A DNA stretch of 64,000 nt, from positions 15,794-79,793 of the forward strand of contig CAYRBO010000016.1 in the NCBI GenBank assembly GCA_964422545.1, given 5' to 3'. Positions within the stretch are counted from its first letter, which is position 1. Each line of letters begins with the position of its first letter. The DNA comes from an uncultured Anaerolinea sp. Lineage in GTDB: Bacteria > Chloroflexota > Anaerolineae > Anaerolineales > Villigracilaceae. The notes under the pieces were generated by a model. The model was not told where the DNA came from. It ran no database searches and saw only the letters and a list, made by a program, of their open reading frames with translations. Both the position numbers and the translations under genes were made by a program. Positions 1,339 through 47,225 of the stretch are shown in pieces.

Positions 1339-1343
1339 GATTG

Positions 1344-2777: not shown

Positions 2778-2779
2778 CG

Positions 2780-3742: not shown

Positions 3743-3745
3743 CTT

Positions 3746-4726: not shown

Positions 4727-4975
4727 GACGGAAGTGCACTCAAGGTTTTCCGTTGCGCTCCGTCGTCGCCGTTGTGGTGAAAATTTTTCGGCGCAGGCGC
4801 GTCCCTGGCCGCTGTTACGTCAGAGCTAGGCGCGCTCGTCGGCGGTCAGCAGACGTTTGTAGAGTGCCAGTTCGCAACGGGGTAATCTGGTTAGAGAGCC
4901 CCAGCCCCGGCTATGACCTGGCGTGCTGGGCAAGGCGTGTTAACTAGCGAAGCCATATCGAAACGCGGCCAATCT
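4690..4975. repeat. Cassette-junction repeat, copy A (~285 bp) with imperfect 17-bp inverted repeat
   Basis: About 200 bp are near-identical to 10370-10570 (gtgaaggtgctgtttttaccacgaagg[a/g]aacgacggaacacgacggaa...ttccgttgcgctccgtcgtcgccgttgtggtgaaaa...ggcgcgtccctggccg...gtttgtagag), then both copies rejoin at gcgaagccatat. Replaces the 5' part of the RHS core in this cassette. Confidence 0.6.
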
Positions 4976-5006
4976 CACACCGTCTGGAGATAGATATATT
5001 TTTCAT

Positions 5007-5549: not shown

Positions 5550-5561
5550 AGACGCAGACTC

Positions 5562-6752
5562 CTAAGGAAAAAGAGGCAAAGGTTGCCCGGTTTGCATAAA
5601 ATATCTCAAAGATGGCAAAGATGGTAGAGAAATTCTGATGTCAGGGTATATTCGAGACGGACCAGGAAAAGCAGAGCTCCCCAAATTTATAGATTGTTCA
5701 TACTCCAGTGTAATTGTCAGAGGGTCATTCCCGTTAAACTGCGGAGGGTTAGGAACAGAAAAATCACTACCAAACCCACTCGACAACCGAACAGAGCCAA
5801 CGGACCTCACAAGTGGCAGATTCCCACTTTCAAAAATTATCCCCGTAATATCCAAATAATCTCCTGAATAATTTACCAATGTCATATCAGATATTGCGAT
5901 ACCCGTAGCCTCATCATATGTGGCCGTGAAATGTACCCAAAAATTCGCGTCCGTATTTTGTGGGCCAACAAAACCGAACCTGAGAAAAAGTGCCAGAGCG
6001 CAAACTGGAGCACCCTGGCGGGTTCCACAAACAGACGCTTCATTAAGGGATAGAAAATCATCACTGCTTTGATCTGGAGCATTAGCAGGAGAACCACCTA
6101 TATGGTAGCCCAAATCTATTTGTCTGGAAAAGTGCCACGTTTGGGCGGGTTGCGGCGGTTGTGGAGGCGGAGGCGGGGATGTTCGCTTTTTATAACGAAT
6201 TTCGCCATCACAACCCTGTTCATCACAGGCCTTATGCCCGCTCGGGTCATTATACCTGACGGGATTATTGTTCATCCCGGCATATCTATCCCAAGCCTGG
6301 ACGCCCTGGCTCTCGAGCGGGATGATGCTGTCCGCCTGGGTGAAGCGGCCAATATAAGGGTCATACCACCTGGCGTTGTAGAACATCAGTCCAAAATCAG
6401 GGACGTTCGAGTATTGTCCGGTGTAGGTGTAGTCGGTTGGCGTGCTGCCCCAAGTATAACGGACTTCGCCCCAAGCGGTGTAGCGCATTTCGGCAATTTT
6501 CGCGCCGCTGGCGTTGGTGGTGATACTGGTCGAGCCGAGGTGGTCGGTCAGGTAATAGACCGGGTCAGTGCAAGTCGTGTCGGAGCAAGTCCGCGAGGCG
6601 ATGCGCTGGGTACCGGCGAAGTAGTATTTCGTCCAGACGGTTGCGCCGTAGGCGGAAGTTGTTAGGGCGGCGGGGCGGAGTTTGGCATACGAGGCCATCC
6701 GCCCGGTAGGTTGGGCAAGGGCGGCCAGTTTGGCGCCGCCGGAGGGGTGCAA
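5562..6752 (-). CDS. Orphan Rhs C-terminal cassette with uncharacterised toxin tip
   Basis: N-terminal ~170 aa (GGAKLAALAQP...TKYYFAGTQRIASRTCSDTTCTDPVYYLTDHLGSTSITTNASGAKIAEMRYTAWGEVRYTWGSTPTDYTYTGQYSNVP...PVRYNDPSGH) are near-identical to residues of the main Rhs protein. Then a Pro-rich linker and ~200 aa with no motif I recognise. Confidence 0.6.
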   Translation of the reverse strand: MHPSGGAKLAALAQPTGRMASYAKLRPAALTTSAYGATVWTKYYFAGTQRIASRTCSDTTCTDPVYYLTDHLGSTSITTNASGAKIAEMRYTAWGEVRYTWGSTPTDYTYTGQYSNVPDFGLMFYNARWYDPYIGRFTQADSIIPLESQGVQAWDRYAGMNNNPVRYNDPSGHKACDEQGCDGEIRYKKRTSPPPPPQPPQPAQTWHFSRQIDLGYHIGGSPANAPDQSSDDFLSLNEASVCGTRQGAPVCALALFLRFGFVGPQNTDANFWVHFTATYDEATGIAISDMTLVNYSGDYLDITGIIFESGNLPLVRSVGSVRLSSGFGSDFSVPNPPQFNGNDPLTITLEYEQSINLGSSAFPGPSRIYPDIRISLPSLPSLRYFMQTGQPLPLFP

Positions 6753-6818
6753 GGTTAGCGGGCCGATGTACCCGTCGCGCCGCGATTCGAAACCTGCCCT
6801 GAATATGAAAGGTGGTAA

Positions 6819-7211
6819 CTACCGTGGAATTCTCTTACTCTGTGAGGATTTTTTTCTGACAACATAACGCCGCGAAACATAGTAGGTGAAAAGTATGGGT
6901 AGAATGATGATTAGCGCAAAACCAATTAGAAACTCTTGTCTAGATGGCTTCCAGAACATGACTATGGTCAAGTATATTCCTAGTAGAAGGCCAAATATTT
7001 GTCCTCTAAATCCATCTACGCTCATCGTTCCTCTCGGATAATCAGCATTGATCGGAGTACCACAAAGATAATATAGCCATTTTGGGGGAACAATAATTTT
7101 ATCGACATTTTCTTTGGTTGTTCGTTTCGACATAACATGAGTAGTGATAAAAAAGCCAAGTATCCACGAACCTATTGCCAGTATCAAAAGGGGCTCCATA
7201 CGATGCTCCAA
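6819..7211 (-). CDS. Small polytopic membrane protein, putative immunity protein
   Basis: Three to four hydrophobic helices, AT-rich, begins ~20 nt after the stop of cassette 7233..8165. Confidence 0.4.
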   Translation of the reverse strand: MEHRMEPLLILAIGSWILGFFITTHVMSKRTTKENVDKIIVPPKWLYYLCGTPINADYPRGTMSVDGFRGQIFGLLLGIYLTIVMFWKPSRQEFLIGFALIIILPILFTYYVSRRYVVRKKSSQSKRIPR

Positions 7212-7232
7212 TATCCAATATTTGAAATAATT

Positions 7233-8503
7233 TCATCTTAGCTCTTGACGATTTTGTTTATTTTTATGTGGGATTTCTCCGAGGGAATCTACCCAATTAA
7301 GCCAATGGTTCTGCACGGTCGCAATACTTAAACTCCTCGCTAAATTATAAGTCACTGTTCCTGCCGTTTTAGAACCTGATACTGTCGTTACTACGGTATC
7401 CGCTAATTCGGCAGTAAAACCAAAACCATAGCCACCAACAGCCGCACTCCCAAAATCCATCCCTCCGGTAGGGGATAAATCGTCATCAAACTGGTCATTC
7501 AAAGCGATGGATGCTTGTGCTCCTAATGCATTTATTCCAGCCCTCGCCGCTTGGGCTGTAAAGCTACTTGCAACTTTTGCTTCTAAAACGGCAGGGCCGG
7601 TCAATGCGACAGCAGCACCCGTAGCCATACCAATTAAGGCATTGCCGGTCATTTCTTGTGAATTGTAACTTTCACCAGCTGTGACAGAATAAGCCGCAGC
7701 TGATGTAGCGGCACCTACACCTGCACCGAAGAGAGTAGCCCCAATAGCTGTCCCTGCTCCTGCGCCAACTCCTGAACCAATCAACAACCCTGCTGTTGCG
7801 CCAACAAAAGCAGCTTGCATGTAATCTCTCGGTGTCAAATTTGGATGGGTAAAATACACAATCGCAACACCAACTACAGCCCCTCCCACTAATCCTACAA
7901 GACATGTAGGACAATGCCCTGACGGGTCATTGTACCTGACGGGATTATTATTCATCCCGGCGTACCTGTCCCAAGCCTGGACGCCCTGGCTCTCGAGCGG
8001 GATGATGGTATCCGCCTGGGTGAAGCGGCCTAATTGGCCGTCGTACCACCTTGCGTTATAGTAATACAGCCCAAACTCAGGGACGTTGCTGTATTGACCG
8101 GTATAAGTGTAGTCGGTGGGCGTGCTGCCCCAAGTATAGCGCGCATCGCCCCAGGCGGTACCCACTCCGCTGCGCTACGGGGGGCTGCGCGCTAGCGCAT
8201 TTCGGCAATTTTCGCGCCGTTGGCGTTGGTGGTGATACTCGTCGAGCCAAGGTGGTTGGTCAGGTAATAGGCCGGGTCAGTGCAAGTCGTGTCGGAGCAA
8301 GTCCGCGAGGCGATGCGGAATGCCCCGGCAAAGTAGTATTTCGTCCAGGTGGTCGCGCCGTAGGCGTAGTTGGTCAGGGCTGCGGGGCGGGTTTTCCCGA
8401 CCTGACGGCGGGACGATGTCGGCCATCCGGCCATGCGCCCGGCGGGTTGTGCGAGCGCGGCCAGTTTCGCGCCGGTGGCTGGCGCAGGACGAATTTTAGT
8501 CAC
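7233..8503 (-). pseudogene. Disrupted orphan Rhs C-terminal cassette (glycine-zipper tip paralogous to the main Rhs tip)
   Basis: ORFs 8192..8503 (GAKLAALAQPAGRMA...TKYYFAG...GAKIAEMR) and 7233..8165 (ARYTWGSTPTDYTYTG...DPSGHC, then a Gly/Ala-rich tip ending KQNRQELR like the main protein's KHKQELR) are in different frames. A ~35-bp insertion (acccactccgctgcgctacggggggctgcgcgc) at 8165-8200 interrupts the conserved AEMRYTAWGEVRYTW segment. Confidence 0.5.
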
Positions 8504-8530
8504 TCACCCATATCCGCGATCTGTAGTGAA

Positions 8531-9385
8531 CTAAAATAGATAGCGATTTATTAAATTAACTAACAGTGTTGTGAAAACATTTATAAGGGTATGCATCATT
8601 ATTGACAAATATAACATTTTGTACTTTTTTATTATCAATGTAGTGAATAAAACACCCAGCGGAATAATTATAAAAAACATTGATAAGTTCTGAATATCGA
8701 AATAGTGTATTCCCCAAAATAAAATAGCCTGAATAAAAAGGGCTTTATTTTCATTGCACCCACTCATAATCAAAAAACTAAACAGCAACCCGCGAAAGCA
8801 AGCTTCTTCAATCACGGACACCACTGAAAATTGCGATACAAAGGTATATACGATGATAGATAACAAGTTTTGAGGAAAGGGTTGAGTGAATGTCTGATCA
8901 AGCAACGCATAAATCAAGGCGATTATGAAAACCGCGAAAATAGACCACAATATCCCAGAAAAAGTTACCCAGAAGCCAGGCATCTTTATATCTTTTCTGT
9001 ATACAATTATATAAGTCAAAAGAACGATACCCAAGAGAATTAAACAAATTTTGTAAATTGCAGTATTTTCTCCTCCTAATCCGATGCTAAAGAAGCAACC
9101 TAACACTATCATCCAGAGAGAGAAATGATCGTGTAACACACTTAGCCCGTTGCTTTGATAAATTAATATACTAATTACAATTATTGTGTAGGGGATAATT
9201 GTACTGAGATACCAATAGTTATAGTCTCGATCAAAATTAGAAAAAAAGAATGGGAAGATATAAAAGCGAACAAGTATTAAGATAATCAGCACAATGCCCA
9301 TTTTAGGGTTTGCAAGTTTTCTTATATTGAAAAAGGCCCTTAAAATATTTGATTGTTTAGCAATCATATTTTCCCAATTAAGCAA
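8531..9385 (-). CDS. CPBP-family intramembrane metalloprotease (CAAX protease / Abi-like), putative immunity protein
   Basis: Seven to eight TM helices with the CPBP motifs EEACFRGLL (EExxxR), WGIHYF (FxxxH) and HTLIN. Very AT-rich (~30% GC). Lies downstream of orphan cassette 9501..10598. Abi/CPBP proteins are established bacteriocin immunity proteins. Confidence 0.65.
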   Translation of the reverse strand: MLNWENMIAKQSNILRAFFNIRKLANPKMGIVLIILILVRFYIFPFFFSNFDRDYNYWYLSTIIPYTIIVISILIYQSNGLSVLHDHFSLWMIVLGCFFSIGLGGENTAIYKICLILLGIVLLTYIIVYRKDIKMPGFWVTFSGILWSIFAVFIIALIYALLDQTFTQPFPQNLLSIIVYTFVSQFSVVSVIEEACFRGLLFSFLIMSGCNENKALFIQAILFWGIHYFDIQNLSMFFIIIPLGVLFTTLIIKKYKMLYLSIMMHTLINVFTTLLVNLINRYLF

Positions 9386-9500
9386 ATCGATATCAGAAGT
9401 ACCATTTGAGGATGTAAATATCTTTCTCTCTCCATCTCTTGGAAGTTAGAAAAGAGATGGAAAGAGTTGACTTGACTAAAAGCATATCATGGTTCGTTAG

Positions 9501-10598
9501 TTACGGCAAAAACGTTGGAGTAAAGAAAAACGGCGTTGGCGTACTTGATGGGAACGATGTTGGCGTAGATATAACCATGTTAGTTGAAGTTGGCGATGCG
9601 GTGGGCGAAGGCGTTCCAGAACCGTAAGGGCCGAGTCGCGGCGTCGTCCACCAACTATAAATCGAAATACCTATATCACCGATTATTGGCTTACCAAGTA
9701 TGATGGCATCAAATACTTTACCAAAGCCAGAATATGGCACAGTAACAGGGTGACTTGCAAGTACAGGATCTATCAAGTCCGCTCCGCAACTAGGCCCAAG
9801 TGATGGATTGAAACAAGTATCGTAAACAACCTCGCCGACGGTACCTGCTGCATCGACTGCTGTATTTACAGCATCTTGACCAAATAATGTCGGTGTTGGC
9901 TGTGGTGTTGCCTGAGGAAGCGCCATTATACAAGAAGCCCCTGCTTGACATTGTTCGGCTGAAGCAGTTGCTTGATAGGCTGAAGCTGTCGCGTTTGCCG
10001 CTGTTGCAGTAGCGCAAGCATTTGAAGGCTCTCCCTGGCATGGAACAGGCGTAGATTGCATATCTGGAAGCGAAAGAGTGGGGCGTGGTGCAGGCGTTTT
10101 GGGTTTCACAGTCTGGGTTGGCTTGCAATTTTTCCCATCATACCGGCCACCACAGCCCACATCATGCCCTGACGGATCCGAGTACCTGACGGGATTATTG
10201 TTCATCCCGGCATAGCGATCCCACGCCTGGACGCCCTGGCTCTCGAGCGTGATGATGGTATCCGCCTGGGCGAAGCGGCTAAGATACGGGTCGTACCATC
10301 TCGCGTTGTAATACATCAGTCCAAAATCAGGGACGTTGCTGTATTGGCCGGTGTAGGTGTAGTTTGTGAAGGTGCTGTTTTTACCACGAAGGGAACGACG
10401 GAACACGACGGAATGCGCACTTAAGGTTTTCCGTTGCGCTCCGTCGTCGCCGTTGTGGTGAAAAATTTTCGGTGTAGGCGCGTCCCTGGCCGTTGTTGCG
10501 TGAGAGCCAGGCGCGTTCCTCGGCGGTGAGAAGGCGTTTGTAGAGCGCCAGTTGCGCCTACGGCAATGCTTGGGCCGATTGCTGCCTGGCGAAGCCAT
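9501..10598 (-). CDS. Orphan Rhs C-terminal cassette with uncharacterised Cys-containing toxin tip
   Basis: Contains LRGKNSTFTNYTYTGQYSNVPDFGLMYYNARWYDPYLSRFAQADTIITLESQGVQAWDRYAGMNNNPVRYSDPSGH, then a Pro/Thr linker and a ~170-aa domain of unknown type. The first ~70 codons of the ORF are encoded by junction repeat copy B and are probably not genuine. The C-terminal ~40 aa are low-complexity. Confidence 0.55.
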   Translation of the reverse strand: MASPGSNRPKHCRRRNWRSTNAFSPPRNAPGSHATTARDAPTPKIFHHNGDDGAQRKTLSAHSVVFRRSLRGKNSTFTNYTYTGQYSNVPDFGLMYYNARWYDPYLSRFAQADTIITLESQGVQAWDRYAGMNNNPVRYSDPSGHDVGCGGRYDGKNCKPTQTVKPKTPAPRPTLSLPDMQSTPVPCQGEPSNACATATAANATASAYQATASAEQCQAGASCIMALPQATPQPTPTLFGQDAVNTAVDAAGTVGEVVYDTCFNPSLGPSCGADLIDPVLASHPVTVPYSGFGKVFDAIILGKPIIGDIGISIYSWWTTPRLGPYGSGTPSPTASPTSTNMVISTPTSFPSSTPTPFFFTPTFLP

Positions 10599-10640
10599 AT
10601 TGGCCCCAGTCCAGGCATGTGTCTCGTTGGGACACTTTCG
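10370..10640. repeat. Cassette-junction repeat, copy B
   Basis: Near-identical to 4690-4890. Contains the hairpin ggaacgacggaacacgacggaa / ttccgttgcgctccgtcgtc. Sits immediately 5' (gene orientation) of the truncated core of cassette 9501..10598. Confidence 0.6.
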
Positions 10641-10653
10641 GGTTAGAAATCTT

Positions 10654-10995
10654 TTACTTTTGCGAATCCCAATATTTTTGTTTTAGGTATTGACCTAACA
10701 CAATGACTGAGAGAATAGGAGCGTATAGAATAGCATAGAAAATCACTTTGTCATATATAGGTGAAAATGTTAGATTCTCGATCGCAACGACATAAAACAA
10801 ACCGAAACTAATCCATTGTATACTTGCAATTTGTAATAAAGCTTCTAGTGTTTCTATGTTTTTCTGTCTCATGTCAGTAAAAAATAATACCTTTACTAAT
10901 TTCTTTCTTAATTTGGCAGGGAGTTTGATGTAGGTGAAAAACCGCATAGATATTGTTAGTAAGATCCCAAAACATCCTGCTACAATCGCTATCAT
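10654..10995 (-). CDS. Small membrane protein, cognate immunity candidate for the full-length Rhs tip
   Basis: Start ATG at 10995 preceded by AAGGAGG (5-nt spacer). MIAIVAGCFGILLTISMRFF... has three to four hydrophobic helices. AT-rich. Starts 19 nt after the Rhs stop at 11015. Confidence 0.55.
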   Translation of the reverse strand: MIAIVAGCFGILLTISMRFFTYIKLPAKLRKKLVKVLFFTDMRQKNIETLEALLQIASIQWISFGLFYVVAIENLTFSPIYDKVIFYAILYAPILSVIVLGQYLKQKYWDSQK

Positions 10996-11014
10996 AGAGA
11001 TTACCTCCTTGTAT

Positions 11015-14000
11015 TCATCGTAATTCCTGTTTATGCTTTTTAGCCTGACTTTGTCCCCATTGTGTCGCAAAAGAAGTGGTAACACCTGTAAAAGTTCCTT
11101 GCACGGCTGACCATCTTGTCCATTGAATTTGGTTGATTATGGTTTTATTTGGCGAAAGAAATTCGCCAGCAAGGGTACTGGCCCCACTGTCAAGCGCGCC
11201 GCCGAATGCACCACCAGCAAAAGCAATTCCAAGATCTGGAAGCGAAAACTCATCTGGTGACGTTGCCGCAAGATACGATGCCGCGCCACCAATTCCTTCA
11301 GCCAACATCTTTTTTCCTAATGGTTGACCTGAACTTGCTGCTGCCGTCAGCCCAGCAATTGCCGCATTGCCGACATAAGGAGCACTCTCAAATTCACCAG
11401 GATTCTGAAACATATAAGACTCTGCGGCAAGACCTGTCGCCACACCTACCCCAATGTATGTACTCGCTGTAGTTGCAGCTGCCGACATAGTTGCGTTTGT
11501 TGCCGCAAGAGTAGCGCCTGCCGCTGCGGCTGCTGTGCTTGTAGAGGCGGCTGCCGCAACAATACCAATCCCTGAACCAACCAAGGCTCCGGCGACAACA
11601 CCTACTCCTATGGCTACAGCAAGTTCTTTACCGTTAAAACTATTCCCTTGATTTGTGATTGCATAAGTAACGCCAGCAATCACTCCTCCTGCCAGAGCCC
11701 CGATAAGGGCTGTGCACAAAACCACACAATGCCCTGACGGATCGTTATACCTGACGGGATTATTGTTCATCCCGGCGTACCTGTCCCACGCCTGGACGCC
11801 CTGGCTGTCGACCGGGATGATGGTGTCCGCCTGGGCGAAGCGGCCTAGCGAGCCGTCGTACCACCTTGCGTTATAGTAATACAGCCCAAACTCAGGGACG
11901 TTGCTGTATTGGCCGGTGTAGGTGTAGTCGGTTGGCGTGCTGCCCCAAGTATAACGGACTTCGCCCCAAGCGGTGTAGCGCATTTCGGCAATTTTCGCGC
12001 CGCTGGCGTTGGTGGTGATACTGGTCGAGCCGAGGTGGTCGGTCAGGTAATAGACCGGGTCAGTGCAAGTCGTGTCGGAGCAAGTCCGCGAGGCGATGCG
12101 CTGGGTCCCGGCGAAATAATACTTTGTCCACGTAGTTCCGCCGTAGGTGTAGGCCTGAGCCTGGGCAGCGGGGCGTGACTTGGATAGTCCGGCCATGCGC
12201 CCGGCGGGTTTAGCGAGCGCGGCCAGTTTCGCGCCGCCGGAGGCAGGTTGGGATGGTTCAAACCCTGTCGAAGGCATGCGGTATGTAATGACCAGTTTGG
12301 GCCGCTGGGAGGTCGTGCCGTTATCGGAAGTCTTGAAATTGAAGCGGTCGTTCAGTTCGGCCTCGGTCTTGAGCAACAGGCCATGGTTGGGGACCGCCCC
12401 GCTCACCCATTCCTGCACCCTGGCCGGGTCAAGCGCCATCTGTTTCTCGACCCCCAGCGGTTCGTTATGCGCCACCTGCATCGAGCCGATAGCCGCGCTT
12501 TCGCGGTCATTAGCACCCGCCGCGCCGGGCGACTGCCAGGGAGCGCCGGAAGCGGCATTGTTCCAGGTCGCCTGGCTTTCGCTGAAGGGGACTTTCAGGC
12601 GGTAAGCGCTGATGGTGCTGTCATTGCTTGCCAGGTCGCCATCCGTCCACAGCGAGAGGGTCACCGAAAGAATCTCGGCGTTGGCAGGCAGGGCCGAAAG
12701 GTCGAACTTGAGCAGGCTGCGGGCGAAGTTGTTGGCATAGTCATTCCTTTCACCAATGCCCATGCCTCCCGCGCCGCCATAGTTGTTGTTGTCGGCGCTC
12801 AGGATGTACGCATCGAGGCCGTTCGCGCTATTGGGTTGCAGGGTGAGGGTGTAGACGCTGCCGCCGGGGGTCGGGCTGGGCGTGGGAGTGGGAGTGAATG
12901 TGGACGGAACGGTTGCCGTTGGCGTAACGGTTGGCGTGCGCGTGGGGGTCGCGCTGGGCGTGGGGGAAGGGGTCGGCGAGGCGGTGCTGGTCGCCGTCGG
13001 CGAGGCGGTAAAGGTGGCGGTGGGAGTGGGCGTGCCTTGTTTGACTTCCAGGTGCCCGCCAATGAACAGGGTCGTCTCGCCGTTAATGACCGACTTTACG
13101 CGCCGGCCGTCGCCATCATAGGTGAAGTGGGCATTCATGCCGCTGCCAGTGACCGAGACCAGGCGGCCTTCGGCATCGTAAGCGAGGGTCATAGTCTGTC
13201 CATTGATGGTTCGGCTGACCTGGTTGCCGTTGGGGTCATAGGTGTATGTATTTCCGTTGGAGAGCGAGGCAACGGCGTGGGGGTGATTCGGGTCGTAGGT
13301 GTAGGTCACGCCGGCTTTGGCGGCCAGGTTGCCGGTCAGGGGGTCGTATTGATAGGATTCGTTGTATAGGCCGCTTGTTCCGCCCGTTGCCTGAGCCGCG
13401 GTCAGGCGGTCGAGGGCGTCGTAGGTGAAGTCTTGTAATTGCGGCGCGCCTGCCGCCCAATCCCTAATCCAATCAATGTTGCCAACCGCATCATAGGCAT
13501 ATTCGAGCGATTGCAGCGAGGTGGGAGCGGCGCTGGTTCCCGATTTGATGAAGCGCAGCCGCCCGCCCTGCTGGTTCCAGGCAAAGTAATCGTAATCGGT
13601 CTGCGTGCCGCTGCCATAAGCGCGGATGTTCATGCGCCCGGCAGAATCGTAGGAGGTGGAAGTGACATACGGGCTGCTGCCGCTGACTGTTTCGAGCAGC
13701 ATTTGCGGCGCGTAGGTGTTCGTCACCACTTCGCCATCGGGATAGGTCATCGTCACAGGCAGGTCAGCGCTGTTGTAGGTCCAACCCGTTGTAAAGGATT
13801 GCCCGCTGATGATTTTGGTTTCGGTGAGCATTCGCCCGCGCCAGTCATAGGTCCAGGCGCTGCTGCCGCTGGCGTCGCTCATGCCCGTGCGGCGGCCTTT
13901 GCCGTTCGTCCCAAGGTCATACGTATATGAAGTGTTCACCTGCGTCCCGCACCCCGCGCCGGAGGAGGCTTTGGAGGTCAGCCGGTTGAGCAGGTCGTAG

Positions 14001-26177: not shown

Positions 26178-26265
26178 AGGAAAATGCAGAATGCAGAATG
26201 TAGAATGTAGAATGCAGAATGTAGAATGATGAATGCGGAGCGCAGAATATTCTGCATTCATCATT
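26178..26265. repeat. Heptamer (GCAGAAT/GTAGAAT) tandem array with an inverted partner (attctgcattcatcattctacat) forming a long hairpin, trpC-trpF intercistronic
   Basis: aatgcagaatgcagaatgtagaatgtagaatgcagaatgtagaatgatgaatgcgg...cagaatattctgcattcatcattctac. Confidence 0.7.
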
Positions 26266-27114
26266 CTACATTTGGGCTAGTTCCCTTATCTTGGCCGGAA
26301 TATCCTCCGCTGTCACCAGGGCTTCGCCGACCAGGATGGCGTCTACGCCGATTTTTTGCAGGCGGGCGACATCGGCGGCGGTGAAGATGCCAGATTCGGC
26401 GACGAGGGTGATTTCGGCGGGAATGAGGGGGCGAATCCGTTCGGTGGTTTCGAGCGAGACTTCAAATGTGGACAGGTTGCGATTGTTGATGCCGATGAGC
26501 CGGATGCCAGGGATTTTGAGGGCGCGTTCGGTTTCGGCTTCGTTGTGGACTTCGACCAGGGCGGCGAGCCCCAGGCTGAGGGCGCAGGCGTGCAAGTCGG
26601 CGAAGCGGGCGTCGTCGGGCAGGGCGGCGGCGATGAGCAGGATGGCGTCGGCGCCGTTGGCGCGGGCTTCGTAGATTTGGGAGTCGTCAATGATGAAATC
26701 TTTTCGTAAGAGCGGTAATTGGTGATTGGTAATTCGTAATTGGCGCAGGGTTTCGAGTTTGCCCTGGAAGAATTTTTCGTCGGTGAGGACGCTGATGGCG
26801 GATGCGCCGTTTTGGGTGTAGAGGTCGGCTACCTGGAGCAGGTCGAGGTGTGGGGCCAAAACCCCCTTCGAGGGGCTGGCGCGCTTGAGTTCGGCAATCA
26901 GGGCGGGGGGCTTTTCCCTCACCCCTATCCCCTCTCCCGGTGGGAGATGGGGATTTTTCCCCCTTCCCCCGTTGAGGGAAGGGCCGGAGATGAGAGCAGC
27001 GAGAAAATCGCGAGGCGCAGGGGAAGATTCTGCGGCGCGGCGCAGGGCCGGGGCGTCGAGCGCCGCGATTTCCAGGCGTTTTTGTTCGAGGATGGTTTCG
27101 AGGATGTTGGTCAA
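26266..27114 (-). CDS. trpC: Indole-3-glycerol phosphate synthase, with an in-frame palindromic mini-insertion
   Basis: IGPS motifs (LIAELKRASPSKG...). TTG start at 27114 with GGAGG 7 nt upstream. A ~25-aa insert GPSLNGGRGKNPHLPPGEGIGVREKPP is encoded by the palindromic element at 26910-26990. Confidence 0.85.
   Translation of the reverse strand: MTNILETILEQKRLEIAALDAPALRRAAESSPAPRDFLAALISGPSLNGGRGKNPHLPPGEGIGVREKPPALIAELKRASPSKGVLAPHLDLLQVADLYTQNGASAISVLTDEKFFQGKLETLRQLRITNHQLPLLRKDFIIDDSQIYEARANGADAILLIAAALPDDARFADLHACALSLGLAALVEVHNEAETERALKIPGIRLIGINNRNLSTFEVSLETTERIRPLIPAEITLVAESGIFTAADVARLQKIGVDAILVGEALVTAEDIPAKIRELAQM
26910..26990. repeat. Palindromic mini-element (CCCTCACCCC-n3-CCCCTCTCCC-n4-GGGAGAKGGGA) inserted in frame in trpC
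   Basis: Shares a ~45-bp core with 36980-37035 in priA. Both are translated in the same frame as LPxGEGxGVR. Confidence 0.6.
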
Positions 27115-27179
27115 CGGATGGCCTCCGGCGAAGCGAATAAACGGATTTTGGGAACGGATATGGAACGGATAAACGGATT
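27115..27179. repeat. AACGGAT-type repeats (AUCCGUU in the mRNA sense) filling the trpD-trpC intercistronic gap
   Basis: aataaacggattttgggaacggatatggaacggataaacggattttaagcggatgg: six copies of the ..cggat.. motif. Confidence 0.6.
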
Positions 27180-28211
27180 TTAAGCGGATGGCGAGGTGAA
27201 GGATTGGCTGAATTCGACGAGTTGGGTCATTTTGGCAAGGGCCGCGCCGCTGGCAAGGGAGTCTTCGGCTTCGGCCAGGGCGGTTTTGATGTCGCCGGTT
27301 TGGGCGGCCAGGGTGCCGGCAGCGTTGAGCAGGACGGCATCGCGGCGAGGGCCGTTCAGTTTGCCAGTGAACAAGTCACGCATCATCTGGGCTGCTTCGT
27401 CGGGAGTGCCGCCGCGCAGGTCGGCGATGGTGGCGCGCGGCAGGCCGTAGTCGGCGGGGTCGAGGTCGTAGGTGCGGACGGCGCCATCTTGCAGGTGGCT
27501 GACGCGGTTGGGGCCGAGCAGGCTGAGTTCGTCTGTCCCGCCTGCGCCGTGAATGACCAGCGCGGCATGGCTGCCGAGTTCGTTGAGAACGTGGGCAAGC
27601 GGTTCGGTGAGCGTGGGAGCGTAAACGCCCGTCAGTTGGATTTCGGCCCCGGCGGGGTTGGTGAGAGGCCCGAGGACGTTGAAGATGGTGCGCTGGCCGA
27701 TTTCCTTGCGCGGGCCAACGGCATGTTTCATAGCCGGGTGGAATTTGGGCGCGAACATGAAGCCGATGCCGATTTCGTCAATGGCCTGGCCGACCTGTTC
27801 GGGGGTCAGGTCGAGGTTGAGACCCAGGGCAGCCAGCACGTCGGCGCTGCCGCATTGGGAGGATGCGGCGCGGTTGCCGTGTTTGGCCACCCGTCGCCCG
27901 GTTCCGGCCACGACAAAGGCTACGGCGGTGGAGATATTGAAGGTGTGCGCGCCATCGCCGCCGGTGCCGACGACATCGTAAATGGGTTGGGAGCGGTCGC
28001 TGACCGGCACTTTGAGCGAAACGGCCCGCATGGCGCGGACTGAGCCGGTAATTTCTTCGACCGTTTCGCCTTTCATGCGCAGGGCGACGAGGTAGGCGCC
28101 AATTTGGGCCGGGGTGGCCTGGCCGGTCATGATGATGGTCATGGCCTGCTCGGCTTCTTCGGCGGTCAGGTCGGTGCGATTAATGACTTGGGCGATAAAG
28201 GGTTTTAACAT
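27180..28211 (-). CDS. trpD: Anthranilate phosphoribosyltransferase
   Basis: GTGGDG motif. Real start MLKPFIAQVI at 28211 with a GGAGG RBS. The ORF extension to 28265 is repeat-encoded. Confidence 0.85.
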   Translation of the reverse strand: MLKPFIAQVINRTDLTAEEAEQAMTIIMTGQATPAQIGAYLVALRMKGETVEEITGSVRAMRAVSLKVPVSDRSQPIYDVVGTGGDGAHTFNISTAVAFVVAGTGRRVAKHGNRAASSQCGSADVLAALGLNLDLTPEQVGQAIDEIGIGFMFAPKFHPAMKHAVGPRKEIGQRTIFNVLGPLTNPAGAEIQLTGVYAPTLTEPLAHVLNELGSHAALVIHGAGGTDELSLLGPNRVSHLQDGAVRTYDLDPADYGLPRATIADLRGGTPDEAAQMMRDLFTGKLNGPRRDAVLLNAAGTLAAQTGDIKTALAEAEDSLASGAALAKMTQLVEFSQSFTSPSA

Positions 28212-28228
28212 AAGGGCCTCCGGAAAAT

Positions 28229-28281
28229 TCAAAATGAAGAATGCAGAGTGCAGAATATTCTTCATTCTGAATTCTGCATTT
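28229..28281. repeat. GCAGAAT heptamer hairpin element, trpG-trpD intercistronic
   Basis: aatgaagaatgcagagtgcagaatattcttcattctgaattctgcattt. Confidence 0.65.
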
Positions 28282-28846: not shown

Positions 28847-28861
28847 AAGGAAAACCTTTCT

Positions 28862-28936
28862 AAATGCAGAATGATGAATGATGAACGCAGAATGAAGAGC
28901 GGTTTTTATTCTGCATTCTGCATTCTAACTTCTGCA
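28862..28936. repeat. GCAGAAT heptamer hairpin element, trpE-trpG intercistronic
   Basis: aaatgcagaatgatgaatgatgaacgcagaatgaagagcggtttttattctgcattctgcattctaacttctgcatt. Confidence 0.65.
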
Positions 28937-30397
28937 TTATTTTTCTTCCGCCATTTCGACCGCTTTCAGCACGGCGCGGGCTTTGTTGAGGGTTTCTTCG
29001 TATTCTTTGGCCGGGTCAGAATCGGCGACGACTCCGGCGCCAGCCTGCACGCTGACCGTCTGGCCGTGACCGACCAGGGTGCGGATGGCGATGCAGGTAT
29101 CCATGTTGCCGTCGAAGGAGAAGTAGCCGATTGCGCCAGCGTAAGGGCCGCGCGCGTCTGGCTCAAGGTCGGCGATGATTTCCATCGCGCGGACTTTGGG
29201 CGCGCCAGAGACCGTGCCAGCCGGGAAGGTAGCCCGCACCAGGTCGAAGGCGCTCAGTTCGGGGCGCAGCGTCCCTTCGACGTGCGAGACGATGTGCATG
29301 ACGTGCGAATAACGCTCGATGGTGAAAAACTCAGGCACTTTGACCGTGCCAAATTCGCAAACGCGTCCCAAGTCGTTGCGGCCCAGGTCAACCAGCATGA
29401 TGTGTTCGGCGCGTTCTTTGGGGTCGGCCAGCAGGTCGGCGGCCAGGGCCTGGTCGGCAGCGGTATCGGCTCCGCGTGGGCGCGTCCCGGCGATGGGGCG
29501 CAGGCTGGCTTTGCGGCCTTCGAGACGGACGAAAATCTCAGGCGAAGCGCCGACGATGTAGAACGGTTCGCCATCCAGGTCGCCAAAGTCGAAAAAGTAC
29601 ATGTAGGGCGAGGGGTTCAGCCGCCGCAGAGCGCGGTAGATGTCGAACGGGTCACTGTGGGCCGGGCGCGACAGGCGCTGTGAGAGCACGACCTGGAAAA
29701 TATCACCAGCGGCGATGTGTTCCTTGCCAATCCGCACGGCCTGTTCGTACTCGGCCTGGGTTAAGTTCGAGGTCACTTCAACGGCGGCAGGCTGCGGAGC
29801 ATCCGTTCCGCGCGGTAGCGGCAAACGGGCGCGTAAACGCGCTTCAATGTCGTCTAATTTGCGGTTGGCAGCGTCCACATCCCCATCAAAGGCATAAGTG
29901 ATGAGGTTGATGGTGTGGCGGGCGTGGTCGAAGGCGATGAGGGTATCGGCCAGCAGGAAAACTGATTCGGGCAGCGTGCCGCTTTGCAGGTGCTTTTGCA
30001 GGCGCGGCTCGAAGTAGCGGATGGTTTCGTAACCCAGGTAACCCACCAGCCCGCCGATAAAGCGCGGCAGGCCTTCGGGCAGTTCGGGGGTGAAGCCGGA
30101 TAACTGGGATTGCAGGTAGTGGAGCGGGTCTTGCCCCGGGGGGATTTGGATATGCTCGATGGCGTTTGCCGAGCGGCGTTCTACGCTCTGGCCTGTAATC
30201 CGATACTCGTAGCGTGGCTCAATGCCGATGAAGGAGTAGCGGGCGATGCGCTCGCCGCCTTGAACCGATTCGAGCAGGAAGGAGGGGCCGCCGCCGCGCA
30301 CCTTGAGATAGATGCTGGCCGGAGTATCGAGGTCGCCCGGCAGACGGCGGATGATGGGGGCGAGGCTGGTGGTAGTTTGGATGAGTTCGGTGACCAT
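28937..30397 (-). CDS. trpE: Anthranilate synthase component I
   Basis: Chorismate-binding family signature (..GAIGYFSFDGNMDTCIAIRT..). AAGGA RBS and ATG at 30397. Confidence 0.9.
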   Translation of the reverse strand: MVTELIQTTTSLAPIIRRLPGDLDTPASIYLKVRGGGPSFLLESVQGGERIARYSFIGIEPRYEYRITGQSVERRSANAIEHIQIPPGQDPLHYLQSQLSGFTPELPEGLPRFIGGLVGYLGYETIRYFEPRLQKHLQSGTLPESVFLLADTLIAFDHARHTINLITYAFDGDVDAANRKLDDIEARLRARLPLPRGTDAPQPAAVEVTSNLTQAEYEQAVRIGKEHIAAGDIFQVVLSQRLSRPAHSDPFDIYRALRRLNPSPYMYFFDFGDLDGEPFYIVGASPEIFVRLEGRKASLRPIAGTRPRGADTAADQALAADLLADPKERAEHIMLVDLGRNDLGRVCEFGTVKVPEFFTIERYSHVMHIVSHVEGTLRPELSAFDLVRATFPAGTVSGAPKVRAMEIIADLEPDARGPYAGAIGYFSFDGNMDTCIAIRTLVGHGQTVSVQAGAGVVADSDPAKEYEETLNKARAVLKAVEMAEEK

Positions 30398-30700
30398 AGA
30401 TGTCCTTTCTTAAGAGAATAGTCCCCTCCGTCCGTTGGGACGAGAGGGGACTCCCGTGGTACCACCCAATTTACGCTTGCTTAAGAAAAATCCCTGTTGT
30501 GATGCAACAGGGAAAGGAGAGCCAGCGTCACTTTTTCGGGTACGGCCAGGTTTGGCTTATACCCTCACCCTGTAACGGGAGTTCCCGGATTAGGTTACTT
30601 TTTGGGTTCCGCTGCCATCCGTTTTTCCGGTTGGTATCCGTTCCCATGTTCACCCGCTCAACTCGGTGGGCCATTCGGCTTCTGCGCTTTTACCGGATTC
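30398..30700 (-). promoter_or_regulatory. Tryptophan T-box riboswitch leader with intrinsic terminator
   Basis: In the minus-strand sense: T-box consensus AAAUUGGGUGGUACCACGGG (GGGUGGNACC core), directly followed by terminator GGGAGUCCCCUC-loop-GAGGGGACU plus UAUUCUCUU. Structured upstream hairpins (CCCUGUUGCAUCACAACAGGG). Lies immediately 5' of trpE. Confidence 0.6.
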
Positions 30701-30878
30701 ACACCAGGCACCGGCTCTCTGAAAATCGCTTTGAAGCGTACTCGTCCACGTCTTCGTTTTTGGTTGTTAAGTTGGGCGTGATTATATGCCGCAAAGCAGA
30801 TTTGTCAAGACAAAAACGGCAACAAAAAGAACTGCCCCACATGGGATTATGGAGCAGTTCCAGTTGAAATGGTGAGTA

Positions 30879-35871: not shown

Positions 35872-38481
35872 TTATAGCAAACTATGGGGTTCCACTTCAA
35901 CACGCCAGCCATTCAGGCCAGCCAGGTTCGGCAACAGTGAGACCGGCTCAGGCCCGCGCAGAATGACCTGCCAGCGGAAAATGTCATTGACGCGGGCAAA
36001 AAAACAGGGCGCGGGGCCAATCAGGTCGGTCTGGGTGCGTTTTTCGGTTTCGATGAGGGCTTTCAATCTCTGGGCCAGGGCACGTGCTTCGTCTTCGGCT
36101 TTGACCGGGTCGCGGTGGCGATATTCGAGCCGGAGCAAGCGCGAAAACGGCGGGTAGCGCAGCAAGCGGCGATTCTCGATTTCCATGCGGTAAAACCCGG
36201 CATAGTCGTGTCCTGCCGCCGCTCGGATGACCGGATGCTCGGGCATGAAAGTCTGCATGACGACCTTGCCGCCACGCGCCGAACGTCCCGCCCGCCCGGC
36301 GACCTGCGTCAGCAGTTGGAAGGCGCGCTCCCCGGCAAACGGGTCGGGCAGGTTCAGGCCCACATCGGCCAGCACAATCCCGACCAGCGTCACGAGCGGC
36401 AAATCGAGCCCTTTGGCGAGCATTTGCGTCCCGACCAGGATGTCAGCCTGGTGATTGGCGAAGTGCGTGAGGATGATTTCGTGGGCGTCTTTTTCGCGGG
36501 TGGTCTCCCAATCCCAGCGCAGGACGCGCGCCGATGGAAACATGGCCGCCACATCCGTTTCCACTTTTTCGCTGCCCAGCCCATAGGCGCGAATGTTCTT
36601 CCCGCCGCAGGCCGGGCAGGTCTGCGGCATTTTCCGGGAATAGCCACAGCGGTGACAAATCAGGCGGTTAACCGAAGAACCGGAAAACTGGTGAAGATGA
36701 TGCGTCAACGGCGTTTCGCAGTGCGGGCATTTGAGGACATGCCCACAATCGCGGCAGAAAACGTAGGTGGCCGTGCCGCGCCGGTTCAGGTATAAAATCG
36801 CCTGTTCACCGCGCTCAAGCACCTCGGCAATCGATTCAGAGAGTTCGCGGCTAAAAATGCCCCGGTTGCCCGACTTGAGTTCCTCGCGCATATCGACGAT
36901 GGATATGGGAGGCAGTCCACCCTCCAGGCTATCTGTTACCCCAAGATTGGCTGCGCGCTCCTTGAGTTCCAGCAGGCGCATTCCCCCACCCCTCACCCCC
37001 GGCCCCTCTCCCAGGGGGAGAGGGGAGATAGCACGGTATCTCGTTTCGACGGGCGGGGTGGCGCTGCCCAGCACCGTTACTGCGCCGCAGATTTTCCCAT
37101 AGATTTCCGCTGCCCGGACGGCAGAGTAAAACGGCGGCTCGGACTGGTAGTAGGAACTGTCGTGACACTCATCGACCACAATCAGCCCGACATCCGGCAG
37201 GGGCGTGAACAGAGCCGAGCGCGGCCCAATGACCAGTTTGAGTAACCCGGCCCGGGCGCGCCGCCAGGTATCGTAGCGCTCGCCATCCGACAGGCGTGAA
37301 TGCACCAGCCCGACCTGGCCGGGAAAACGGTCGAGGAAGCGGCGCACGGTTTGGGGCGTGAGGGCAATCTCTGGGACAAGGACAATCACCCCCCTCCCGC
37401 GCCGAATCGACTCGGCGGCAGCCCGCAGGTAGAGTTCGGTCTTGCCAGAACCGGTGATGCCGTGCAGGAGGAAGCCGGGATTCGTTACTCGATATTCGTT
37501 AGTCGATATTGGATGTTCGATATTCGAGGTTCGAGTATTCGAATATTCGAGGGTCGAGGGTCGAGAGTCAAAGGCGTTGAGAATTTCTTGCAAAGCCGAT
37601 TCCTGCTCGCCGGTGAGAATCACGTTTCGATTCCCAACTCCCAATTCCCGGTTGCCCAATTTGCCCAGCGGGTCGCGCCAGATTTCGCTCTCGAACAGGC
37701 GAATCAGGCCGCGTTCCTCCAACTCCTGCAAATCGGCCAGGGTGCAGCCCGATTGGGCATAGACCCAGGTAACGGCCACCGCGTCTGGCTCGTGGATGAG
37801 GAAGCGCAAGGCGGCGCCGCGCCGCGCGAGCGTATCGGCGGTTTTGCCCAGGTTGGGCAATTCCGCTTCGGCAATTTCGGGCGGAACGGCCAGCTGCGCC
37901 ATGCGGACGTATTTGGGGCGCACCGAGGGCGGCGGCAGGACGGCCTGTTTGCCCAACACCCCGCGCTTGACCAGGACCTCGGCGGTTTTACGCCACTCGA
38001 CGGGGCCAAAATGCCGGTCAATTTGCCGCCCGCGCAAGGGGTTGCGCTGCACGAACAGGTCGAGCAGGCGTTTTTCGACCTTGCCATCTGCCGTAGCCGG
38101 GGCGCGCAGGAGCGTGTAGAGCGTATCGGCCTGCTGGCTCAGACCGGTCGGCAAGAACAGGTTGATAACCGCCGAAAGCGGATTCAGGGTGGCTTGGGCC
38201 AGTTGGCGGGCAAAGGCCAGCTGCGGCCCGGTCAGCACCGGCTGGGGGTCGAGGATATTCAGAACCGGTTTCGGATTCGGCACCGAGGCCGAATCCATCA
38301 AGTCGAACACCACCCCCTGAACGGTCTGCGTCCCAAACGGCACGCTGACCAACTGCCCCGGGCCGACGGCCATCCCGGTTGGCAGGACGTAATCGAATTC
38401 GCCGGAAACAGCGGGCAGGTTGACGGCAACACGGGCAAAAGCCATGCGGCCATTATACGGCGATTTTCGCCAATCATCCAA
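35872..38481 (-). CDS. priA: Primosomal protein N' (replication restart helicase PriA), with two in-frame repeat insertions
   Basis: Walker A GITGSGKTE, DECHDSSY, helicase C motifs, Cys4 zinc finger (CRDCGHVLKCPHC...CHRCG). Inserts encoded by the palindromic element at 36980-37035 and the AT-rich palindromic repeat at 37480-37570. Confidence 0.8.
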   Translation of the reverse strand: MDDWRKSPYNGRMAFARVAVNLPAVSGEFDYVLPTGMAVGPGQLVSVPFGTQTVQGVVFDLMDSASVPNPKPVLNILDPQPVLTGPQLAFARQLAQATLNPLSAVINLFLPTGLSQQADTLYTLLRAPATADGKVEKRLLDLFVQRNPLRGRQIDRHFGPVEWRKTAEVLVKRGVLGKQAVLPPPSVRPKYVRMAQLAVPPEIAEAELPNLGKTADTLARRGAALRFLIHEPDAVAVTWVYAQSGCTLADLQELEERGLIRLFESEIWRDPLGKLGNRELGVGNRNVILTGEQESALQEILNAFDSRPSTLEYSNTRTSNIEHPISTNEYRVTNPGFLLHGITGSGKTELYLRAAAESIRRGRGVIVLVPEIALTPQTVRRFLDRFPGQVGLVHSRLSDGERYDTWRRARAGLLKLVIGPRSALFTPLPDVGLIVVDECHDSSYYQSEPPFYSAVRAAEIYGKICGAVTVLGSATPPVETRYRAISPLPLGEGPGVRGGGMRLLELKERAANLGVTDSLEGGLPPISIVDMREELKSGNRGIFSRELSESIAEVLERGEQAILYLNRRGTATYVFCRDCGHVLKCPHCETPLTHHLHQFSGSSVNRLICHRCGYSRKMPQTCPACGGKNIRAYGLGSEKVETDVAAMFPSARVLRWDWETTREKDAHEIILTHFANHQADILVGTQMLAKGLDLPLVTLVGIVLADVGLNLPDPFAGERAFQLLTQVAGRAGRSARGGKVVMQTFMPEHPVIRAAAGHDYAGFYRMEIENRRLLRYPPFSRLLRLEYRHRDPVKAEDEARALAQRLKALIETEKRTQTDLIGPAPCFFARVNDIFRWQVILRGPEPVSLLPNLAGLNGWRVEVEPHSLL
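36980..37035. repeat. Palindromic mini-element (same family as 26910-26990) inserted in frame in priA
   Basis: cccccacccctcacccccggcccctctcccagggggagaggggagata, translated as SPLPLGEGPGVRGGG. Confidence 0.6.
37480..37570. repeat. AT-rich degenerate tandem repeat built on the palindrome TCGAATATTCGA, in frame in priA
   Basis: cgatattcgttagtcgatattggatgttcgatattcgaggttcgagtattcgaatattcgagggtcgagggtcgag encodes ..TRTSNIEHPISTNEYRVTN.. just upstream of the Walker A motif. Confidence 0.5.
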
Positions 38482-47113: not shown

Positions 47114-47225
47114 GTTCAGTGTTCAGTATTCAGTGTCCAGTATCCAGTGATCAGTAAGCAGTAAGCAGTGATCAGTAAGCAGTGGTCAGTGATTAGCGTA
47201 CTGATGACTTGAACCTGCTCACTAA
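47104..47225. repeat. CAGTNNN heptamer tandem array (11 units) with a downstream inverted partner
   Basis: ttcagtgttcagtattcagtgtccagtatccagtgatcagtaagcagtaagcagtgatcagtaagcagtggtcagtgattagcgtactgatgac. Confidence 0.7.

Follow-up and report, generated by a model that had tools for sequence, protein, structure and literature searches.

Triplex-motif repeats translated in frame within trpC and priA of an Anaerolineales genome, and the same repeat at the inverted ends of DUF559 units

Why would two housekeeping genes of one bacterium carry the same short palindromic sequence, and be translated straight through it? This question is raised by a 64-kb stretch of DNA (referred to here as the window) from an uncultured Anaerolinea species, in which trpC and priA each contain a copy of a near-identical element of 38 nt (trpC) or 37 nt (priA). 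An initial annotation of the window had likened these two sites to the Rickettsia palindromic elements (RPEs) and had proposed that a mobile, hairpin-forming element tolerates or even requires in-frame insertion in protein-coding genes. Judged by their sequence, both sites belong to the triplex-motif family that has been named BoxC, PIT or TMECO. Both are in-frame insertions relative to orthologous genes, and in other bacteria the same repeat sequence forms the inverted ends of small units that carry a DUF559 nuclease gene. The genes and elements concerned are located in the window as follows.

26266..27114, minus strand: trpC (indole-3-glycerol-phosphate synthase, IGPS), 282 aa, with the Pfam IGPS domain (PF00218) in all homologues
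26916..26953, minus strand: solo triplex-motif (BoxC/PIT/TMECO-type) element in trpC, recognised by pattern match, hairpin and orthologue comparison
26959..26985, minus strand: second hairpin in trpC, beside the element, recognised by its fold and by orthologue comparison
35872..38481, minus strand: priA (primosomal protein N', replication-restart helicase), recognised by PriA Pfam domains
36990..37026, minus strand: solo triplex-motif element in priA, recognised by pattern match, perfect 10-bp hairpin and orthologue comparison

The composite pattern CCCTCACCCC-N3-CCCCTCTCCC has two exact matches on the plus strand of the window, at 26916-26938 and 36990-37012. Shuffled sequences gave 0.01 matches and none of 100 shuffles reached two, so that the shared two-site pattern of the initial annotation is borne out. 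No third site was present in the window even when 3 mismatches were allowed, and relaxed and fuzzy patterns likewise returned no further copy of the element. The hairpin CCCCTCTCCC-N3-GGGAGAGGGG was found only at 26929-26951 (1 mismatch) and 37003-37025 (0 mismatches), and the enrichment of single arms by themselves was weak or not significant. Both copies lie inside minus-strand open reading frames (ORFs), where they are read in the sense orientation and in an identical frame. As had been proposed, the peptide common to the two is L-P-x-G-E-G-x-G-V-R. On the coding strand, the trpC copy consists of TCCCCaTCTCCC (the C-arm, with a 1-nt bulge), ACC, GGGAGAGGGG (the G-arm), ATA and GGGGTGAGGG (the mirror G-arm). 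It is translated as P-H-L-P-P-G-E-G-I-G-V-R, corresponding to TrpC residues 55-66, and as single-stranded DNA it is predicted to form a hairpin of -10.7 kcal/mol (z -2.7). The priA copy reads TCCCCTCTCCC-CCT-GGGAGAGGGG-CCG-GGGGTGAGGG and encodes S-P-L-P-L-G-E-G-P-G-V-R (PriA residues 486-497, followed by G498), with a predicted hairpin of -13.7 kcal/mol (z -1.65). Its hairpin CCCCTCTCCC-CCT-GGGAGAGGGG is a perfect one of 10 bp, whereas the trpC counterpart contains the 1-nt bulge. Of the six frames in which the element can be read, five are free of stop codons, and the sixth holds a TGA.

The second hairpin in trpC reads CCCCCTTCCCCC-GTTGA-GGGAAGGG on the plus strand; it is GC-rich (-9.5 kcal/mol, z -2.7) and is translated as GPSLNGGRG. 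This hairpin was absent from all 119 of the 119 other TrpC orthologues. It looks unrelated to the triplex element and a third arm could not be recognised in it, but it may be what is left of a second element in tandem. The range of 26910-26990 originally assigned to the trpC site thus contains the element, at 26916-26953, together with this unrelated-looking hairpin at ~26959-26985.

The assignment to a family follows from published work on enterobacterial repeats. The repeat was named BoxC in the 1990s (Bergler 1992; Bachellier) and subsequently PIT (potential intrastrand triplex) by Hoyne and Maher (2000, 2002; via PMC4666352). Holder et al. (2015) listed 23 TMECO elements of Escherichia coli K-12 in their Table 1, for example CCCTCTCCCTGTGGGAGAGGGCCGGGGTGAGGGC, and the published pattern is CCCTCNCCC-N3-6-GGGNGAGGG-N3-GGGNGAGGG (PMC4666352). 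Both window copies match this pattern, with arms of 10 nt that are one triplet longer per arm. In each of them a C-arm of the CCCTCNCCC type is followed by a loop of 3-6 nt and a G-arm of the GGGNGAGGG type, and then by a second loop of 3 nt, CCG or ATA, and the mirror G-arm GGGGTGAGGG. Since the third arm mirrors the second, a single strand could fold as a class II purine-motif triplex, in which GGGGTGAGGG antiparallel to GGGAGAGGGG would give G·G:C at 8 positions, one A·A:T and one T·A:T. The E. coli version, which has 9-nt arms, was shown by circular dichroism and nuclear magnetic resonance to form such a triplex as a single strand in vitro (PMC4666352). Alternatively, the G-half can fold as a G-quadruplex, as it has four G-tracts. 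The isolated G-half from Klebsiella pneumoniae, KP-PGQ-5 (GGGAGAGGGCCGGGGTGAGGG), is listed as a G-quadruplex former with a melting temperature of 58.6 C in vitro (PMC11170735). An Rfam search of 26700-27200 at a permissive threshold returned only sub-threshold noise, and no family in it matched the element.

The relatives of TrpC and PriA carry names that point to the Anaerolineales (Chloroflexota). Some of these orthologues lack the element, and the net gain is +36 nt, so that both copies are true insertions in frame. Among 120 TrpC orthologues (72-100% identity), 61 have a filled or long loop and 59 an empty or short one, and a GEGxGV-like peptide is found in 53 of the loops. There is little variation among the empty alleles, 54 of which have a loop of exactly 13 residues. 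There are two insertion points in TrpC, either after RRRN or before RRRF, and one orthologue (P0066) is filled at both. At the DNA level, the junctions of P0007 versus P0010 show a net difference of +36 nt, and so do those of P0022 versus P0084, a pair whose flanks are ~97% identical and in which P0084 has a degenerate hairpin. The empty trpC site, AACCTCCCCCCG, contains a C-run that resembles one end of the element. The insert region comprises TrpC residues 43-70, between the N-terminal helices and strand beta1 (ALIAELKRASPSKG); in an alignment with structures from the PDB these residues remain unaligned, against 8 residues of Brucella IGPS (3tsm). In the AlphaFold2 model a helix at 37-42 is followed by residues with a predicted local distance difference test score (pLDDT) below 50. 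As this model is mediocre (mean pLDDT 70, with beta1 also poorly modelled), the placement of the loop leans mainly on the PDB alignment. In (beta-alpha)8 barrels, a loop leading into beta1 at its N-terminal end is on the opposite face of the barrel from the active site.

In PriA, whose start is likely the ATG at 38445 because orthologues begin with MxFARVAV, the insert follows helicase motif III (GSATP) and the helix of that motif. The closest relatives (84-88% identity) are filled, whereas the next clade reads only S-QGGG, and in clades at 63% identity a separate SPLxxGEGxGVR occurs, displaced by a few residues. Altogether at least three slightly different junctions were seen, in clades at 63-88% identity. 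The orthologues P0130-P0139 are without the element, and comparison of the window with P0130 and P0138 gave a net +36 nt at the DNA level. The empty priA site, GGGTGGGGG, has a G-run that resembles one element end. Two further PriA orthologues, P0126 and P0129, contain decayed copies. Moreover, an 18-nt mini-hairpin, CCCCCTGACGGGGG, is nested in the priA element of the relatives P0123, P0125 and P0133 (see the priA loop of locus L126). Aligned with the PriA of K. pneumoniae (6dgd), the insert corresponds to a 12-residue gap between SATPALETLH and NVRQGKYRQLTL. In the AlphaFold model (mean pLDDT 74.8) residues 487-499 score below 50, between a helix at 478-485 and a strand at 501-506. The addition of a Gly/Pro-rich loop to both enzymes, as put forward initially, was thus borne out, and both inserts lie in loops that are predicted to be disordered. 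As a separate observation, PriA contains two lineage-specific low-confidence segments at residues 266-284 ('GKLGNRELGVGNRN') and 309-332 ('SRPSTLEYSNTRTSNIEHPISTNEYRVTNPG'; both encoded at ~37486-37686), which are without the triplex-motif signature. These two segments and the repeat insert account for the extra length over orthologues of 815 aa.

In all three filled/empty comparisons (3/3) the net gain was exactly 36 nt, or 12 aa, and nothing was seen at the junctions other than microhomology in the form of a G- or C-run matching an element end. Presence and absence differ between close relatives: orthologues at 63-97% identity are either filled or empty, at slightly shifted points. For the two genes of the window, the proposal of two independent insertions was right. 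A third in-frame copy was found in a close relative, in trpF (L123, 11063-11097), where another frame is used (..GRGAGGE..).

How widely the repeat occurs was determined by searching a 20-base pattern of the G-half in species-representative genome contigs and in IMG/VR contigs classed as viral. The genome contigs yielded at least 120 loci, with ~1 expected for random sequence of uniform base composition, and among the matches listed the C-arm, which was not part of the search pattern, was found 2-12 nt upstream in 127 of 153 hits (83%). The viral contigs gave at least 120 loci as well (L208-L327), with the C-arm in 115 of the 137 hits among the matches listed (84%). The prediction of a sizeable family was therefore correct, the family being very large across both collections, and so was that of a dispersed hairpin-forming mini-element. 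Among the matches listed, the motif is present in at least 13 phyla plus viral contigs. Its hosts include Chloroflexota (several classes), Planctomycetota, Acidobacteriota, Armatimonadota, Nitrospirota, Gemmatimonadota, Bipolaricaulota, Bacteroidota, Geobacteraceae, Cyanobacteriota including Melainabacteria, and alpha-, beta- and gamma-Proteobacteria, the proteobacterial hosts including isolate genomes of Pseudomonas, Metapseudomonas, Xanthomonas and Salinisphaera. Gracilibacteria and Streptomycetaceae are each represented by a hit in a single metagenome-assembled genome, possibly a contamination. The published census counted 3610 copies in 262 proteobacterial genomes and mentioned cyanobacteria; the 23 copies of E. 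coli MG1655 were described as "always located intergenically", no association with transposons, phages or plasmids was reported, and Salmonella is without TMECO (PMC4666352).

Across phyla, ~101 of 154 sampled copies lie outside long ORFs and look intergenic. The suggestion that in-frame insertion is required did not survive this count, with about two-thirds of the copies lying outside long ORFs. The remaining copies lie in ORFs and use all five stop-free frames, and by eye their in-frame hosts include methionyl-tRNA synthetase (MetRS), leucyl-tRNA synthetase (LeuRS), an MFS transporter, HypF and an asparaginase-like protein.

Two of these loci contain more than a solo repeat. In a beta-proteobacterial MetRS ORF (L004, 2123-2637) and in a LeuRS ORF of Panacagrimonas (L098, 1734-2203), two inverted copies of the repeat flank a module of ~110 aa, which is a match to Pfam DUF559 (E 1e-34), and the whole unit is in frame with the host ORF. 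DUF559 is a member of the Vsr clan of PD-(D/E)XK nucleases, which also contains a homing endonuclease of a group I intron (PMC3424549). A protein search with the insert retrieved DUF559 fused to MetRS C-terminal domains, RecX, Maf and methylases, and in these fusions GRGAGGEG, which is the repeat translated in another frame, precedes the nuclease core by a fixed distance of 47-63 aa.

The association was also examined in the reverse direction. An alignment of DUF559 cores (A2), free of residues derived from the repeat, was scanned against metagenome contigs, and the best 80 loci (L128-L207) were chosen by the DUF559 core only. The repeat was present at no more than 250 nt upstream of DUF559 in 49 of 74 loci, mostly in forward orientation, and at no more than 250 nt downstream in 54 of 76, mostly reversed; in 41 of the 80 loci it was present on both sides and inverted. 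Elsewhere in those loci there were 21 copies in 315 kb, which amounts to a ~39-fold enrichment beside DUF559. In 33 complete units of 406-565 bp the left and right repeats share the variant of arm and loop, and similarity ends 1-7 nt outside the C-arm. The distance between repeat and DUF559 core is nearly fixed, at 10-70 nt upstream and 23-50 nt downstream. About 19 of 61 units with a recognisable core (~30%) are embedded in long ORFs, with MetRS, MetH and an HrpA-type helicase as hosts according to Pfam, and LeuRS by eye. The HrpA unit follows motif III, which is the topological spot of the solo copy in the PriA of the window. Furthermore, the priA copy of the window is identical at 34 of 35 positions to the terminal repeats of the DUF559 unit in L128. 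Among the 120 loci selected by the repeat, a DUF559 gene was found in only 4. Separately, one viral locus (L324) carries two DUF559 genes.

A DUF559 gene beside a published repeat also occurs in E. coli. In strain MG1655, ycjD (a DUF559 gene; L121, 1349500-1352500) adjoins TMECO no. 9, which lies in the spacer between fabI and ycjD. At its 3' end the gene merges with a degenerate C-arm, after which come a partial duplicate of that 3' end and then TMECO no. 9. The ycjD region is covered to at least 80% in only 3377 of 5426 complete E. coli genomes. With no repeat upstream and an untidy 3' end, ycjD lends weak support to the unit architecture. TM loci have been found to be unusually variable between E. 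coli strains, and instability at such repeats has been published (PMC4666352). The literature on DUF559, ycjD, PF04480 and COG2852, covered incompletely and mostly as titles and abstracts, yielded no mention of a link between DUF559 and the repeat; one paper notes an unexplained fusion of DUF559 to a SPOUT methyltransferase. Set against this literature, what is new is that copies are translated within essential genes, that the repeat spans so many phyla and that it brackets DUF559 genes; the last of these points lies outside the window.

Taken together, the comparisons show that the two sites belong by sequence to the BoxC/PIT/TMECO family, that they are insertions relative to orthologues, translated in frame and located in loops, that their presence among close relatives is patchy, and that this repeat sequence also forms the inverted ends of DUF559 units. 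It is probable that each of the two sites in the window is a solo copy, inserted into trpC or priA in the lineage of this Anaerolineales genome, and that it represents a cargo-less member of the DUF559-unit family that is carried as a tolerated passenger. The family would then be the terminal inverted repeat of a unit of ~410-565 bp, the sole gene of which encodes a DUF559 (Vsr-like PD-(D/E)XK) endonuclease, and solo copies would be cargo-less derivatives of this unit. Conceivably, copies are gained and lost via breaks made by the DUF559 nuclease and templated repair, or via hairpin-driven replication slippage, and the element ends might find microhomology in G- or C-runs at the target. Given that the window has no DUF559 gene, any such activity would take place in trans or belong to the past. 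The window copies would persist because 36 nt keep the frame, because five frames are open and because the Pro/Gly-rich peptide is located in a loop off the catalytic core. The inserts are best seen as selfish or neutral DNA, that is as passengers tolerated in loops, and not as enzyme parts or new enzyme features. From the presence/absence patterns we infer that the element has been mobile. A wider proposal, which we put forward tentatively and hold for arguable, is that BoxC repeats are the terminal inverted repeats of a pan-bacterial selfish DUF559 element of ~450 bp, that units and solo ends colonise essential genes and are translated through as Pro/Gly-rich linkers, and that the trpC and priA inserts are such solo ends.

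Several observations weigh against this proposed explanation. Neither a target-site duplication nor another transposition signature was found at the three filled/empty junctions. No DUF559 gene was detected by tblastn or by a hidden Markov model on six-frame ORFs, either in the window or across ~200 kb of loci from related Anaerolineales. To our knowledge, stand-alone PD-(D/E)XK nucleases have no strand-transfer activity, which leaves a cut-and-paste route unsupported. The repeats could also be landing pads for DUF559 genes instead of ends. In 240 orthologues, strict element peptides occurred in the TrpC and PriA loops only, in one orientation and frame; this pattern is not obviously predicted by random insertion followed by selection, and it may reflect allelic recombination of a few old insertions. 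Fitch parsimony on neighbour-joining trees required at least 31 changes for TrpC and at least 17 for PriA, but the trees are noisy, and because they are weak and recombination is outside the model these counts are evidence of patchiness only. The copy count for this genome rests on the window. In E. coli, moreover, the triplex was not detected by in vivo dimethyl sulfate footprinting (PMC4666352).

The single frame and orientation in the TrpC and PriA loops fit a few old events combined with allelic recombination at least as well as repeated insertion. If only a few old insertions had taken place and mobility had ceased, the patchiness would have arisen as hairpin slippage removed copies precisely and as filled and empty alleles recombined. 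This would agree with the confinement of the peptides to these loops, with the many decayed copies (P0126, P0129 and the degenerate hairpin of P0084) and with the uniform 13-residue empty loops of TrpC, and allelic exchange predicts precisely such a pair as P0022 and P0084, which differ by the element within nearly identical flanks. However, TrpC has two insertion points, both of them occupied in P0066, and PriA has its three or more junctions; the two copies of the window deviate little from the pan-bacterial consensus, that in priA not at all; and the nested mini-hairpins and the tandem second hairpin point to continuing activity. We therefore regard a few old insertions as possible but unlikely to be the full explanation. 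A different relationship between repeat and nuclease, in which homing-type DUF559 genes enter pre-existing inverted pairs while the repeat spreads otherwise, so that the window copies would be unrelated to DUF559, is likewise rather doubtful. Insertion sequences that target repetitive extragenic palindromic (REP)-type palindromes are known. E. coli has five inverted TMECO pairs without cargo (PMC4666352), and the scarcity of DUF559 in the repeat-selected loci and its absence from the window would be expected of landing pads. Yet the two repeats of a unit agree in the variant of their arms and loops and keep a near-fixed distance to the DUF559 core, which fits a co-evolving unit, though a palindromic target would look alike.

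That the host keeps the inserts for a function, be it as a protein linker or as an mRNA hairpin, G-quadruplex or DNA triplex that tunes translation, transcription or replication, appears improbable. In older copies GEGxGVR is better conserved than the peptide of the C-arm, the G-half of E. coli and Klebsiella forms a G-quadruplex in vitro (PMC11170735), and the full single strand, which forms a triplex in vitro, is also able to block polymerases there (PMC4666352). On the other hand, the element is missing from half of the close orthologues, copies decay, the loops are predicted to be disordered, and elsewhere the repeat is mostly intergenic or present in any frame or orientation in other proteins. 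No Rfam family matches the element, and PIT elements displayed no promoter, terminator or in vivo polymerase-blocking activity (PMC4666352). An origin as a transposase-driven miniature inverted-repeat transposable element (MITE) or as a true relative of the RPEs is very improbable. A dispersed palindrome in frame in housekeeping genes is indeed what RPEs provide (PMC10969869), and as an analogy of behaviour the comparison made in the initial annotation stands; as a statement of kinship it fails, given that the element has 36-38 nt instead of ~150 bp and is BoxC/PIT/TMECO by sequence. There is no target-site duplication and no ORF-specific peptide family, and the associated gene encodes a nuclease, not a transposase. 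This candidate was rejected as contradicted by the length and the junctions of the element. Practically no weight is left for Gly/Pro coding of low complexity that arose in situ by convergence. In its favour, the peptide is rich in Gly and Pro, and comparable residues are seen at these loop positions in distant orthologues of PriA and TrpC, but 35 nt of DNA identity with unrelated genes and phyla, extending to third-codon positions and hairpin symmetry, and a discrete indel of +36 nt run counter to it, and the DNA-level matches rule it out. The case that only two copies exist and that their residues are convergent, which had been named at the outset as the contrary outcome, is not what was found.

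These results imply that a classic "intergenic" enterobacterial repeat is in fact pan-bacterial and can sit, translated, inside essential enzymes. They also bear on annotation: MetRS genes with a unit are called fragments of a "methionine--tRNA ligase subunit beta", and loop inserts of the GEGxGVR type can pass for lineage-specific protein features. The link with DUF559 provides a testable lead on the origin of BoxC/TMECO, which has been unexplained for 30 years. If the proposal is true, the DUF559 units in MetRS, LeuRS, MetH and HrpA would place a nuclease gene in essential genes without splicing, which would be a new strategy of selfish elements, and this "in-frame passenger" strategy would be distinct from introns, inteins and classical MITEs.

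The window has other features that stand apart from the triplex motif. At the gathering score, Rfam detected in the whole window only three tRNAs and the following element.

30433..30763, minus strand: T-box leader (Rfam, 97 bits, above the gathering score)

This leader is located upstream of ORF 28937..30397, with which, to judge by the place of the ORF in the trp cluster, the trpC-containing operon probably begins. Palindromes of the tandem heptamer (GAATGYA)n are present at gene junctions of the trp operon, including that between the trpC stop and the trpF start (26179-26280, 28212-28280, 28849-28949), and palindromes of (CAGTRWT)n occur elsewhere, including beside a tRNA pair (47116-47190, 52026-52099, 60677-60702); their sequences are unrelated to the triplex motif. 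A perfect inverted repeat of 49 nt (51664-51712 and 54979-55027) encloses 3.3 kb with tRNA-Met and tRNA-Gly, and a 60-nt direct repeat (51837-51966) duplicates the 3' part of tRNA-Met. The region of the 49-nt inverted repeat has the appearance of either a mobile element or a scar left by integration at a tRNA gene. Finally, positions 1-12200 have a GC content of 47%, compared with 55-61% elsewhere, and contain five copies of a repeat of ~300 nt and further shared segments, which suggests that this low-GC block holds tandem paralogous genes and is possibly a foreign island.

In comparison with known systems, the window copies share with BoxC/PIT/TMECO the three arms in the order CCCTCNCCC-loop-GGGAGAGGG-3 nt (often CCG)-GGGTGAGGG, the geometry of the purine-motif class II triplex, the dispersal as solo, inverted-pair and tandem copies, and the instability of loci, presence varying between close relatives here as well. 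They differ in that their arms are one base longer and that the host belongs to the Chloroflexota, whereas the published census concerns Proteobacteria. The copies of the window and that in the trpF of L123 are translated inside genes, unlike the intergenic ones of MG1655, which is a difference in a property and not in the definition of the sequence, and the link with a flanked gene is absent from the published account. With regard to KP-PGQ-5 and KP-PGQ-3 of K. pneumoniae, KP-PGQ-5 equals the G-half of the triplex repeat. It was described as an isolated G-rich oligonucleotide, however, and the competing hairpin-forming C-arm and the repeat context are outside that description (PMC11170735).

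RPEs comprise ten Rickettsia families of ~150 bp, each with its own conserved ORF (PMC10969869). Like these, the present element is a palindromic repeat that occurs in frame in unrelated housekeeping genes and encodes a peptide compatible with the fold (PMC10969869). With 36-38 nt, 12 aa, three arms, hosts in many phyla and a mostly intergenic location elsewhere, it is set apart from RPEs as described. MITEs are defined by terminal inverted repeats and target-site duplication, whereas the solo element has one hairpin and a tail. As for a longer, gene-carrying relative, the DUF559 units of 406-565 bp, which carry the repeat as inverted ends, are a candidate; their gene encodes a nuclease, not a known transposase, and none was found in the window or the related loci. 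A parallel in organisation is offered by REP/REPIN-RAYT systems (PMC3116915), in which short hairpin repeats, in solo and paired forms, likewise far exceed in number the single-copy gene on whose two sides they stand in inverted orientation. There, the flanked gene encodes an HUH (Y1) transposase similar to those of IS200/IS605 and not a DUF559 Vsr-like PD-(D/E)XK nuclease, and REPs are extragenic whereas the triplex repeats are also found in frame in genes. Finally, DUF559 units resemble the homing endonuclease genes of inteins and group I introns in placing a small nuclease gene inside essential genes, those for MetRS, LeuRS, MetH and HrpA, while the hosts stay intact. They differ from these in that no intron or intein signature was seen, the unit being apparently translated through and bracketed by Pro/Gly-rich peptides that the repeats encode.

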